The translations under genes and the position numbers were made by a program. Below are positions 36,619-64,000 of a DNA stretch of 64,000 nt, in pieces (position 1 is the stretch's first letter; each line of letters starts with the position of its first letter). Source of the DNA: Escherichia phage vB_Eco_F31; sequence record OP870147.1; one strand, written 5' to 3'. Below the pieces are notes generated by a model. The model did no database searches. It was not told the DNA's origin and saw only the letters and a list, made by a program, of their open reading frames with translations.

Positions 36619-36654
36619 ATCTTTTTAAACTTTTTCTGCCCTAAACGCACAAAA

Positions 36655-36672
36655 GGGAGACCGAAGTCTCCC
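36655..36672 (-). terminator. rho-independent terminator GGGAGAC-UUCG-GUCUCCC + UUUU (minus strand)
   Basis: Same 18-nt hairpin as at 13282, 51876 and 60200; follows stop of the 59-aa ORF. Confidence 0.55.
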
Positions 36673-36677
36673 TAAAA

Positions 36678-36857
36678 TTATGCAACAACCTTTCCAAAAC
36701 GAGAAGCATCATCTCGAAGAACTGCACGTGCTCTGCGCATGATCTTCTCAACTGTTTGATTAATACGAGAGTTCGACCCACGCTTGTATCCAGCGCGTTT
36801 AGAGGTACCATCAACTTTCTTTTCAACTGCTTTCTTTGCTTTAGCTTGTTTTGCCAT
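36678..36857 (-). CDS. small highly basic hypothetical protein (59 aa), below the track's cutoff
   Basis: Hand-translated MAKQAKAKKAVEKKVDGTSKRAGYKRGSNSRINQTVEKIMRRARAVLRDDASRFGKVVA; followed by terminator hairpin 36655-36672. Confidence 0.5.
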   Translation of the reverse strand: MAKQAKAKKAVEKKVDGTSKRAGYKRGSNSRINQTVEKIMRRARAVLRDDASRFGKVVA

Positions 36858-37152
36858 TATAAATTCTCTTTAAATGAAAATGCAGGACTTATTGACATTG
36901 CCTGCGCAAGCCCTCAAGGGGAACATAGGTTTTGGATATTTAACGACAGGATAACCATAAACCCGTCATTATACCAACCACGACTTAGACAGATAACCTT
37001 TTTCTGACGCGTGATAGTACAAAATACATTCAAGAGGTACACCGTAAAACTGCCGGGGCCTTAAAACTATAATGATTCGCAAATCATTAATCAGACAGTT
37101 CGACGGCTCCTCGATTTTCTAGCCGCACTTAAGGTAGCGAATCACCTAAAAC

Positions 37153-37401
37153 TTATTTAAGGGTAATAACAAAATGACGTACTGCTTTACGAGCTGCAGA
37201 AGCCAAAGGCTTAGCATATTTCAGTTCATCTTTTGCTTCCAGTTCAGAGGCCAAAGCTGCCTGTACCGGGTTCAGATGTTTGAAATAATGCAGGATTTCC
37301 AGTGCTTCGGCTTCAACATCAATCGACGCGCCGTAGTTTTCGTGACCGTTATTCCATGCGTTTCGTTGCAGTTCAAGAGCGTGTTGTAATTGTTTAATCA
37401 T
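37153..37401 (-). CDS. rIII: lysis inhibition accessory protein rIII
   Basis: 82 aa, same length as T4 rIII; position adjacent to gene 31. Confidence 0.75.
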   Translation of the reverse strand: MIKQLQHALELQRNAWNNGHENYGASIDVEAEALEILHYFKHLNPVQAALASELEAKDELKYAKPLASAARKAVRHFVITLK

Positions 37402-60922: not shown

Positions 60923-60930
60923 GAGGACTT

Positions 60931-63900
60931 ATGGCTACATTAAAACAGATACAATTTAAAAGAAGCAAAGTAGCAGGAGTTAATCCTACTGCAGCACAAT
61001 TAGCCGAAGGCGAATTAGCGATAAACTTAAAAGATCGAACTCTTTTTACTAAAGATGACCTCGGTAATATTATTAGCCTAGGCTTTGCTAAGGGTGGGGA
61101 TATTAACGGTAATGTAACTCAAACTGGTGATTATTTACAAAACGGCACATATAATCTCAATGGAAATCAGTTTGTTTATGCAGGAAAATACATTGAATTT
61201 TTACCTAAAACCACTGGAAATGGCGCTTGGGCTAACCAACATTCGAATAAAGCCCCTATCTTTACAGATTTAAGTTCAACTACTTCTGTTTCAGAATACC
61301 ATCCACTGATTAAACAACGCTATAAAGATGGAACTTTTTCTGCTGGTACATTAGTAAACGAAGGTAGTTTTAAATTCCATTATATTGATGAAACCGGGAC
61401 TTCAAAATACTGGACTTTTAATCGAAACGGTAATTTTCAAGTTGATTCCGGAAGTTTATTAGTATCTAATGGATATTTAGTTACTCAAAGTAATATTGAA
61501 ACTAAAGCTGGTTCTTTAATTGGTCCTAAAGTTATTACCAAAAATATCAATGTGAGCACTAAATCTTGGGACACTAATATTGATACTGCATATGATTTAG
61601 TTTCATTACCGACTTGGCACTATACTCCAACCGAAACAGATTTGGATACTAATGGTATAAACTACCTTCGTAAATTCCGCGGACACGTTTCTTCTGCTAT
61701 TTTCCATGAAGTTGCTGATGCTCGTTCAGGTAAACCACAGAATATTTCGTATTGGACGGGACGTAATGCTGAAGTTTATCAATGGTCTTATACCACAGAT
61801 GGGCGTATGTCTGTTGCTAATTCGATAGGTATAGGTCTTGCTGATGTTGGTGACCAAGGACGTTATCCATTGGTTTCGTTTGGTAAAGGTATTGCAATTG
61901 GTGACAATGATACTGGTATTAAATGGGTTCGTGACGGGGTTATCGATTTAGTTGCGAATGGTATTTCTGCCGGCACTATTCTTAATAACGGTATTAACAG
62001 TACTAAAAAATTGATGGTTGGTTATAGTCGAGATTCTGGTTCTACTTGGGATTACCCAAATAACAACCAAGCAATGTTTACTGCGCGTACCGATGTTGAT
62101 GGTAATAATAACGGTGACGGTCAGACTCATATTGGTTATAGCAGCAATGCCAAGATGTATCACTATTTCCGTGGTACAGGTCGGATGTCCGTTAGTATGG
62201 GCGATGGACTTCTTGTTGAGCCTGGCATTTTAGATATTAAGACTGGTTCAAATTCGTTAAATTTGCGTGCTGATGGTACCATCGCTTCTGTTCAAACGTT
62301 AAAACTTAATAATGGATTATATTTTAATGGCGATGGAACTAATGCTTCTCTAGTTTTTAAAGCAGCTTCAGGTATTGATGGCACTAAGCAAATCATGTGG
62401 GAAGGCGGTACTCGAGCAGGTCAGAATAAGAGTTATGTAACGGCTAAAGCATGGGGTAATTCATTTAATGCCACTGGTGATAAATCTCGTGAAACTGTAT
62501 TTGAAGTTAGTGACGGGCATGGATACCATTTTTATTCTCAACGTGTAGCTCCTGCGCCTGGTTCTACCGTTGGACCTATTCAATTTCGAGTTAATGGTGG
62601 TTTATTAACTTCAGGTAGTATTGTTACTTCTGGTTCTATTACAACTGAATCTTCTTTAAGTGTTAATAATGGCATGTCAGTAAATGGACAAGCTAAATTC
62701 GGTGGAACAGCCGACGCATTAAGAATTTGGAACGCTGAATACGGCGCTATTTTCCGACGTTCAGAAACAAGTCTGTACATTATTCCGACTCCTAAAGATG
62801 CCGGTGAAAGTGGTGGAATAAGTAATCTTCGCCCGTTTTATATCAATTTAGGCGATGGCCAAGTTTCTATGGACCATGTAGTAGATATCGGCGGTGGTAG
62901 ATTTAAAGTAGATACAACCGGTACTACGGCTGGTCAACGCATAACAGTAAATATGGCATCAGATGCTATTAGAATAAATGCTCCAACACAAAAGTCTTCT
63001 AACTTCATTCAAGGACGTAAAGCAGATGTTCCGAAATGGTATTTAGGTATTGGCGATGGTGGCAACGTCGTTCGTATGCACAGCTACACATATTCACATG
63101 GTATTGCATTAAACTCTGATTCTGTCGATATTACTAAACCATTAAAAGTTGGAAATGCTCAATTCGGTACTGATGGTAACATCACTGGAGGCACTGGTAA
63201 CTTTGCTAACTTGAATACCACAATAAATAACCTTAAGACGGATATTGTCTCGAGTTACCCAATTGGTGCTCCGATTCCTTGGCCTACTGATACACCTCCT
63301 GAAGGTTATGCCATAATGGAAGGTCAAACATTTGATGCTGGCTTGTATCCTAAGTTAGCTGCGGTGTATCCTTCCGGCTCTCTGCCTGATATGCGTGGTC
63401 AAACTATCAAGGGTAAACCATCTGGGCGTGCTGTATTGAGTACAGAAGCAGACGGTGTTAAGTCACATAGCCATAGTGCAAGTGCATCAAGCACAGATTT
63501 GGGTACTAAGACCACGTCAAGTTTTGATTATGGTACTAAGACGACAAGTAGCTTCGACTATGGTACTAAGACCAGCAATACCACTGGTAATCATAACCAT
63601 ACAGTGAGTGGTAATACTGGTTCCGCTGGTGCGCACCAACACGCGCGTTCAGGCCCTCAGATACAAGGCGGCGTACCACAAGGCGGCGTACCCACTAGCA
63701 TATTCTATGATGGATACAATAGTGCGGGACCAAACGGCAACGCTAAAATCACTGGATCCGTGAGCGGTGCTCCTGCATCGTCGAATATGGCCAAAACTTC
63801 TTCAGACGGTGCCCACACCCATAGTTGGTCAGGAACTACTAGCGCTACGGGTAACCATGCTCATACTGTGGGTATCGGTGCCCATACACATACTGTAGGT

Positions 63901-63999
63901 ATTGGTGCCCACTCTCATTCGGTAGCGATTGGTTCCCATGGACATACAATAACTGTAAATGCCACAGGAAATACAGAAAATACTGTTAAAAACGTTGCT
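60931..63999 (+). CDS. 37: long tail fibre distal subunit gp37 (receptor-recognising), 3' end outside window
   Basis: ATG at 60931; N-terminus [13 protein letters not shown] as T4 gp37; frame open to window end (>1023 codons); His-x-His repeats near the end. Confidence 0.9.
63496..63960 (+). repeat. short tandem peptide repeats in gp37 distal region ([10 protein letters not shown] x3; H-x-H-(T/S)-V-(G/A)-I-G-(A/S) x3-4)
   Basis: Seen in translation: [28 protein letters not shown] and [30 protein letters not shown]. Confidence 0.6.
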
Positions 64000-64000
64000 T

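Follow-up and report, generated by a model that had tools for sequence, protein, structure and literature searches.

The closest described counterpart of the element reported here is the pseudo-ToxI of Pectobacterium phage phiTE, a phage-borne copy of the RNA antitoxin ToxI of the type III ToxIN abortive-infection systems. Pseudo-ToxI is expressed during infection and suppresses the toxin ToxN once it has been expanded (PMC3475682). With its 1.5 units, wild-type phiTE is aborted by ToxIN; escape mutants have 4.5–5.5 units or a captured toxI, and in one over-expression test a lone pseudo-ToxI repeat proved ineffective (PMC3475682). According to a 2017 paper, phiTE is the only known phage of this kind (PMC5449768). 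An E. coli toxIN blocks T4 (bioRxiv 10.1101/2022.04.14.488369), and T4-like phages counter E. coli toxIN with the protein TifA; that work mentions no ToxI-like sequence, rIII or 30.9. As of a 2010 review, no T4 riboswitch or trans-acting regulatory RNA had been functionally characterized (PMC3014915). Here we describe the 295-bp gap between rIII and the 59-residue gene 30.9 (positions 36858–37152) in a 64,000-nt stretch, hereafter the window, of the T4-like Escherichia phage vB_Eco_F31 (Mosigvirus; OP870147.1). We read this gap, with moderate confidence, as a co-transcribed non-coding array of independently folding RNA modules (M1 to M6) headed by a type III antitoxin mimic.

The leading module, M1, is a single 36-nt pseudo-ToxI unit (AGGTGATTCGCTACCTTAAGTGCGGCTAGAAAATCG; 37112–37147, minus strand), recognized by blastn and by alignment to toxI units, that begins 6 nt past the rIII stop codon. 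When the gap was compared by blastn with 5,426 complete E. coli genomes, matches (76 places, 72 of them on plasmids) were confined to the initial ~40 nt. The individual plasmid matches are short (E ~2e-3 to 7e-3), and we inspected two. Each lies in an array of tandem 36-nt repeats that immediately precedes a ToxN/AbiQ-family toxin gene, with the M1-like match on the same strand as toxN. M1 is identical to the toxI unit of pMB9_2 at 31 of 36 positions, and its nucleotides 1–25 are identical both to the annotated pseudo-ToxI non-coding RNA of phiTE and to the repeat core of pU90-1. The match lies on the coding strand of rIII and 30.9, that is, on the minus, transcribed strand. Judged by sequence, M1 is a homologue of toxI and pseudo-ToxI in the orientation of its neighbours' transcription. 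The ToxN processing motif is AA^AU, and the 3' end of the M1 unit reads AAAAU, which resembles the ToxN cleavage site.

M1-type units are found in 95 phage records. These come from several families and include Kuravirus, Salmonella phage 7-11, ~110-kb Klebsiella phages, and phages of Erwinia and Serratia; among the 45 rows listed, the unit is annotated in phiTE only. Variants in other phages are identical to M1 at 24–30 of 36 positions (24 in T4's own M1). Moreover, two complementary triplets are preserved at the same positions by compensatory change: they read TGC/GCA in pMB9_2 and a Klebsiella phage, CGC/GCG in the window phage, phiTE and TG1, and CAC/GTG in T4 and STML-198. The location of M1 is also constant in distant genera, being the same in Escherichia, Klebsiella, Yersinia, Edwardsiella and Salmonella phages. 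This broad occurrence, this fixed position and variation that is compensatory, not random, all argue against viewing M1 as an inert scar of illegitimate recombination with a plasmid toxI array, in a gap otherwise conserved for unrelated reasons. The scar explanation does draw on the ability of phiTE to recombine with toxIN plasmids, on the single copy of M1 and its loss from several close relatives, and on the sensitivity of T4 to ToxIN despite its own M1; we nevertheless judge it quite unlikely.

Two further observations concern these units. In phages of the Mosigvirus ESh15 type and in other close relatives whole modules are deleted, some genomes being without M1 and M2 and others without M1 alone; natural knock-outs therefore already exist. 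In phiTE the annotated pseudo-ToxI (1574–1625 of the retrieved stretch) abuts GGTTCGAACCCGTCCAGTTCCACCA, which looks like a tRNA 3' end, so the mimic may be fused to a tRNA fragment.

We propose that the gap would be read as part of the rIII–30.9 message and that M1 would be the phage's version of the 36-nt antitoxin RNA belonging to the ToxIN systems of enterobacterial plasmids. Once infection shuts off host transcription, host ToxI would decay; the phage-made M1 unit would then bind the ToxN endoribonuclease and help to hold it inactive. In its minimum role, M1 could be a seed from which amplification or recombination builds a stronger mimic, an outcome for which phiTE provides an experimental precedent. 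M2, M4, M5 and M6 would most likely act as RNAs in their own right, for instance as elements for protein binding or for processing or stability, and not as parts of one integrated leader. We infer expression of the gap as RNA, its processing into separate units, the binding of ToxN and any function of M2 and M4–M6. As M1 copies the ToxI antitoxin, the gap probably helps the phage to evade ToxIN, a defence that acts through a phage-killing toxin.

Several observations weigh against this proposal. The window phage has a single M1 unit, whereas wild-type phiTE is still aborted by ToxIN with 1.5; given that result and the failed over-expression of a single repeat, one copy of M1 may have little or no activity. 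Wild-type T4, which carries its own, more diverged unit, remains sensitive to an E. coli toxIN. M1 is not tandemly repeated: we found no direct repeat within the gap and no second copy in the 64 kb, and an AGGAG at the start of M2 is the sole resemblance to the beginning of a second unit. The nearest AAAU on the 5' side of M1 is 10 nt upstream, within the last rIII codons, and so sits 10 nt further upstream than in a true toxI array. The plasmid matches that tie M1 to toxI are, as noted, short, and two of them were inspected. Finally, a search of the 5,426 E. coli genomes to E values of 10 gave no match for M2, M4, M5, M6 or M3b (a module of related phages), several variants having been used for M2, M4 and M3b, and M4 had none in plasmids. 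For want of an E. coli counterpart, extending the mimic idea to these modules is unsupported, and we rejected the notion that all modules are antitoxin mimics.

M2 is an irregular 90-nt hairpin with conserved internal loops (37027–37116, minus strand), which scores 117 bits with our covariance model R1. The initial annotation, made from the letters alone, had picked out a perfect 7-bp hairpin with a tetraloop at 37071–37088. This stem-loop (AATGATT-TGCG-AATCATT) is indeed present, but it is only the tip of M2. The initial annotation also suggested a structured RNA, to be sought by covariation across related phages, and such an analysis supports the stems of both M2 and M4. Across an alignment of 15 distinct M2 sequences, pairing extends to 98.6% of cells, and double-sided changes occur in 12 of the 23 pairs; these pairing and covariation values were reached by 0 of 500 shuffles. 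The apical helix 3 has 8 pairs, 4 of them with compensatory changes, and 100% of its cells are paired. In a control in which the partner strand was slid by 1–3 columns, only 26–65% of cells pair. One stem position is a U-G wobble in 9 of the 15 sequences, which fits an RNA of the rIII sense strand. The loops GGAGCC..CGAA, CUGAUUA, UAUAGUUUUA and GGUGUACC are nearly invariant. M2 therefore has a conserved secondary structure.

Two other readings of M2 elements were rejected. A RegB site at the GGAG misfits the strong-site consensus GG*AGRAYARAA and is partly base-paired, and a hammerhead-like reading of GUC...CUGAUUA would have the catalytic G replaced and lacks a three-way junction. Separately, the 5' strand of M2 (AACTGTCTGATTAAT, 37086–37100) is 93% complementary over 15 nt to ATTAATCAAACAGTT in the 30.9 coding sequence (CDS; 36750–36764). 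A related direct repeat is also present, and the complementarity could reflect long-range pairing or chance.

With R1 we found one copy of M2 in the window and further copies in three groups unrelated to T4, namely Kuravirus, Vequintavirinae and phi92-like Justusliebigvirus. The initial annotation had missed this distribution, as it had missed the 36-nt ToxI-type unit that follows rIII. In Kuraviruses of the SU10, XT32 and 172-1 type, M2 is a clean ~100-nt insertion relative to phiEco32, placed between the upstream CDS and an intrinsic terminator that is followed by terL. In the Vequintavirinae LTH01 and A73 it lies directly upstream of two tRNA genes and a T4 rnaD homologue, and in the phi92-like Justusliebigviruses it lies inside a tRNA cluster. 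A diverged basal M2 (40 bits with R1) occurs in phiTE, 14 nt upstream of tRNA-Cys and ~1.3 kb from pseudo-ToxI. Pattern scans of viral and metagenome collections returned M2 only in the same phage clades. A pattern scan of bacterial genomes gave 120 loci; among the 100 that were screened with R1 the best score was 18 bits, so we regard those 100 as chance matches.

The surroundings of M2 in these groups have features of their own. M2 is absent from the Kuraviruses phiEco32, NJ01 and Paul; where it is inserted (707–800 of the retrieved stretch, versus ~690–705), it stands immediately 5' of the terminator AAGGGACTTTCCCTTTTCTATTTTT and the terL ribosome-binding site. Its 3' strand ACCCTT resembles the terminator 3' arm TCCCTT, so an attenuator-like alternative pairing is conceivable in Kuravirus. 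In LTH01 and A73 the homologue of rnaD (the species 2 stable RNA) is clear and follows just after tRNA-Met, in the same cluster as M2 (~1545–1640 and ~1785–1880 of the retrieved stretches).

M4 is a hairpin with a candidate pseudoknot (36924–36974, minus strand). Its 6-bp stem pairs GACGGG (36962–36967) with CCTGTC (36945–36950); 95.7% of cells are paired, 4 of the 6 pairs show double-sided changes, and 0 of 500 shuffles match the covariation score. The stem is therefore also a conserved secondary structure. The loop holds GGTTATCC (GGUUAUCC), and GTTAAATATCCAAAACC then follows the hairpin. Pairing of GGTT (36953–36956) with AACC (36928–36931), 20 nt downstream, is suggestive of a pseudoknot, with counterparts in PM2 and PS49 (GGUAG/CUAC(U)) and in a Klebsiella phage (UGGUU/AACCA). 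This second stem of 4–6 bp is not better than shuffles in most sequences and, since such short pairings are common in shuffles, we regard the pseudoknot as a candidate only.

The two remaining conserved modules are small hairpins, and they account for the further GC inverted repeats that had been reported in the gap. M5, CCC(C)TTGAGGG (36911–36921, minus strand), is present in nearly all Tevenvirinae versions at varying positions in the array; its stem is invariant, so covariation is uninformative for or against it. M6, GCAGG(14 nt)CCTGC (36882–36905, minus strand), has its arms at 36901–36905 and 36882–36886, just upstream of the 30.9 ribosome-binding site. In Salmonella phage STML-198 the same place is taken by GAACTGG(14)CCAGTTC, in which pairing is kept through two double-sided changes.

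Between the conserved blocks M2 and M4 lies a variable slot. It is empty in T4, and in the window phage alignments show that it holds M3a, a lineage-specific insert of ~51 nt (36975–37025, minus strand). In LZ9, VR26, ZQ3 and many Klebsiella, Enterobacter, Citrobacter, Edwardsiella and Aeromonas phages the slot is filled by M3b, a module of ~135–150 nt that is unrelated to M3a and absent from the window phage; it spans, for example, ~577–731 and ~1000–1135 of two retrieved relatives' stretches. M3b occurs in 408 phage records across many Tevenvirinae genera, is 91–100% identical in most of them, and appears once per genome except in one record. For five sequences RNAalifold gives 44 pairs, 14 of them with compensatory changes. 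M3b has no match in Rfam or in the E. coli genomes.

The conserved parts of the gap change more slowly than the genes around them. By blastn the gap was found in 775 phage records. Comparison with the rIII–30.9 interval of T4, which the initial annotation had recommended, shows that T4 shares the gap, at 244 bp. Identity to T4 is 97.8% for M2, 98.0% for M4 and 98.4% for M5–M6 with the 30.9 initiation region. The corresponding values are 88.9% for gp31, 85.5% for rIII, 92.1% for 30.9, 69.5% for 30.8 and 87.4% for 30.7, so the non-coding modules M2 and M4–M6 exceed every flanking gene. Identity of some 98% against 85–92% in the flanking rIII and 30.9, together with the covariation in M2 and M4, strongly supports the suggestion of a structured RNA. 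The alternative suggestion, a remnant of a deleted gene, fails, as the modules outconserve neighbouring genes and recur in unrelated phages. Two of the proposed routes gave nothing. The gap has no match in Rfam release 15 at E up to 10, and six related loci have none at E up to 1; for M1 this silence is uninformative, because Rfam 15 also misses a genuine plasmid toxI array of E. coli. The gap as a whole folds no better than shuffled sequence on either strand (z = -0.37), and for that reason we rest its significance on conservation and covariation, not on folding energy.

Module order varies among Tevenvirinae genera. It is M1-M2-M4-M5-M6 in T4, M4-M1-M3b-M5 in PEi26, M5-M3b-M4 in PS49, M5-M4-M1 in TG1, and M4 between two unrelated hairpins in PM2. 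These differences suggest independently working units and not one integrated fold. They bear directly on the possibility that the entire gap acts in cis as a 5' leader for 30.9, on the model of the T4 gene 32 leader pseudoknot, that controls downstream translation or stability and perhaps serves autoregulation by 30.9. The shuffled order argues against such a leader, as do the homology of M1 to a trans-acting antitoxin and the Mosigviruses that lack M1 and M2 yet keep 30.9. Moreover, M2 occurs alone upstream of tRNAs (A73, LTH01, phiTE) or of a terminator (Kuravirus), with no translated gene directly downstream. A leader would fit the finding that the Tevenvirinae array always ends at the 30.9 ribosome-binding site, with a hairpin always before that site. 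The 30.9 protein is also small, basic and rich in lysine and arginine, and phi92-like phages have kept the element, the ribosome-binding site and the ATG fused to a different open reading frame (ORF). Weighing these points, we think a leader rather unlikely.

The phi92-like phages (phi92, muut and PD06) are not relatives of T4, but their tRNA cluster contains the complete element in a T4-type copy (~99%). In phi92 this copy (1488–1840 of the retrieved stretch) is circularly permuted: the element comes first, and then the 30.9 ATG in frame with the last ~41 rIII codons. The fused ORF bears the annotation 'rIII'. A 13-nt direct repeat, TTTATTGGAGATT, flanks the copy and overlaps the 5' end of tRNA-Gln. 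From its arrangement, the copy looks like an apparent mini-circle integration. The modules have spread horizontally. Within the 64-kb window there are no module copies elsewhere.

A circularly permuted copy would also be compatible with a different account, in which the gap is mainly a PeSL-like promoter cassette: a stem-loop with an early sigma-70 promoter driving 30.9. PeSL cassettes pair a stem-loop with an early promoter and shuffle via mini-circles (PMC4122927). The initial annotation had pointed to an extended -10 element, and TGgTATAAT (TGGTATAAT; 36968–36976, minus strand) does stand at the M3a/M4 junction, as a perfect extended -10 with an A-run upstream. The motif is real, but the case for a promoter is weak. 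The hexamer lies in the conserved 5' flank of M4, and its TATAAT form is a point variant limited to the window clade: most relatives have TATGAT or TATGTT at this place, and T4 has AATGAT. The TG of the extended -10 is contributed by the lineage-specific 51-nt insert M3a. Set against the early-promoter consensus TTTACW-N17-TAYWAT (PMC4122927), the -10 TATAAT fits, and the -35 region (TTATCT/GTTATC), read by eye, matches 3 of 6 positions; neither of two promoter scans listed the site, and transcription from it would be predicted to start within the 5' half of the M4 stem. Each module occurs once in 64 kb, and BLAST gave one place per record, whereas PeSLs are multi-copy, and a promoter cassette would leave the covarying stems unexplained. 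TGgTATAAT may be a young clade-specific promoter that does not explain the region, and the cassette account as a whole seems to us very unlikely. In a separate examination by eye, no convincing match to a MotA middle or a late promoter was found in the T4 version, and these were rejected.

The gap had been described as free of ORFs. Literally this is not so: the ORF list contains a 42-residue GTG ORF (36914–37042, minus, coding strand), and a 37-residue TTG ORF (36969–37082, minus, coding strand) is annotated in Escherichia phage vB_EcoM_G53 as CDS G53_00216 (1869–1982 of the retrieved stretch). In substance the description holds, since neither behaves as coding. The reading frames are not conserved: T4 lacks 51–52 nt within both ORFs, relatives differ by 1-nt indels, and the start codons are not kept in LTH01 or XT32. 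Neither ORF belongs to a PHROG family, and substitutions track base-pairing, not codon structure. The idea that the gap encodes small proteins has in its favour the two ORFs and the G53 annotation, and we give it almost no credence. The 37-residue CDS of G53 falls within M2 and M3a and very probably does not represent a real gene.

The locus itself is arranged as in T4. Across the rIII–30.9 stretch the window phage is 99.9% identical to G53, a Mosigvirus. On the minus strand the order is gp31, rIII (37153–37401), the gap, 30.9 (36678–36857), a terminator-like hairpin, 30.8 and 30.7, and T4 has the identical arrangement. The ORF coordinates of rIII and 30.9 give the gap the limits originally assigned to it. 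The 30.9 translation initiation region, AAGAG ... ATG (36855–36870, minus strand), is conserved in T4. The hairpin after 30.9 (GGGAGAC-TTCG-GTCTCCC-TTTT; 36651–36672, minus strand) carries a terminator annotation in G53 and, from its sequence, is likely to be the 3' end of transcripts covering the gap. A terminator scan within the gap gave no terminator-like site. ARAGORN found no tRNA or tmRNA genes: there are no tRNA genes in the window, and none in the relatives' gaps. The median stretch without any ORF of at least 55 residues is 56 bp in the window, which fits the earlier remark that most gaps are under 60 bp and makes 295 bp unusual. For T4 transcript maps of the interval, the literature gave only a citation to a 2003 paper on rIII/30.9 expression, and our search of the literature, the coverage of which was incomplete, found no description of this locus. 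Elsewhere in the window, an ORF-coverage script flagged a 1-kb ORF-free stretch at 60.9–62 kb (within 60923–64000); we do not count it as a non-coding feature, because it is the distal long tail fibre gene running past the window end.

A broader reading of the array would make it an RNA anti-defence island, in which M2, M4 and M3b are also decoys or mimics directed against other RNA-binding abortive-infection toxins. The targets might be other type III families or tRNA- or RNA-targeting nucleases, and the modules might be exchanged as cassettes among unrelated coliphages, often in tRNA clusters. A mobile distribution is common among anti-defence elements. The link of M2, M4 and M3b to defence draws on their patchy horizontal distribution, on an architecture of M4 that resembles TenpI antitoxin RNAs, and on association with pseudo-ToxI: M2 and M4–M6 travel with or near it in other phages, being adjacent in T4-like phages and sharing a tRNA region in phiTE. 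We hold this wider reading tentatively and think it unlikely.

The proposed non-coding array headed by an antitoxin mimic matters in several respects. The locus offers concrete conserved RNA candidates in a gap shared by T4, where no trans-acting RNA had been characterized as of 2010. An unannotated ToxI-type unit in T4-like and other phages suggests that the mimic strategy, or the raw material for it, is widespread. M2 and, in relatives, M3b are structured RNA motifs with good support that no Rfam family covers and whose distribution is mobile. Simple tests are feasible with model phages and E. coli toxIN plasmids. In addition, the 37-residue CDS of G53, and 'hypothetical protein' calls that the BLAST listing places under the gap in some relatives, probably need removal.

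How does the array compare with known RNA elements? Like T4 rnaC and rnaD (species 1 and 2), its modules are phage-encoded and structured, and the M2 of Vequintavirinae lies in the tRNA cluster of the rnaD homologue. However, rnaC and rnaD have another genomic location in T4, and comparison with the gap gave no significant sequence similarity, only chance 7–8-mers. PeSL cassettes (PMC2839356, PMC4122927) are likewise intergenic and modular, and tied to insertions, deletions and module shuffling, possibly through mini-circles. They are short, loosely conserved regulatory motifs, present in many copies per genome and concentrated in plastic regions, whereas the modules described here occur once each and hardly vary, and they combine covarying stems with conserved loops. 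TenpI antitoxin RNAs (PMC12283969), which lie upstream of a tenpN gene, have a first stem, then an A-stretch, then a second stem that forms an H-type pseudoknot, and M4 resembles this layout, although its second stem is only a candidate; M4 differs in having no similarity to any E. coli locus, no tandem repeat and a weakly supported second stem.

The two nearest systems are those that share M1. Plasmid ToxI arrays (pMB9_2 and pU90-1) have in common with it the 31/36 unit match, the complementary segments and an A-rich 3' end. By contrast, the arrays comprise 4–5.5 tandem units followed by a terminator and toxN, and the phage M1 is solitary, with neither a terminator nor an adjacent toxin gene. 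The pseudo-ToxI of phiTE (PMC3475682) has 1.5 units instead of one, and its function has been shown only for escape mutants with 4.5–5.5. phiTE belongs to the Vequintavirinae and its unit lies among tRNA genes; in the T4-like phage studied here, M1 occupies the rIII–30.9 gap and is directly joined to other conserved RNA modules. The two correspond in other respects: each is a phage-borne copy of the 36-nt unit, intergenic, oriented along transcription and with no toxN nearby, the first 25 nt are identical, and an M2-like helix is found in the tRNA region of pseudo-ToxI as well. What is new in the rIII–30.9 gap is a probable variant of a known phage counter-defence joined to RNA motifs outside current families.

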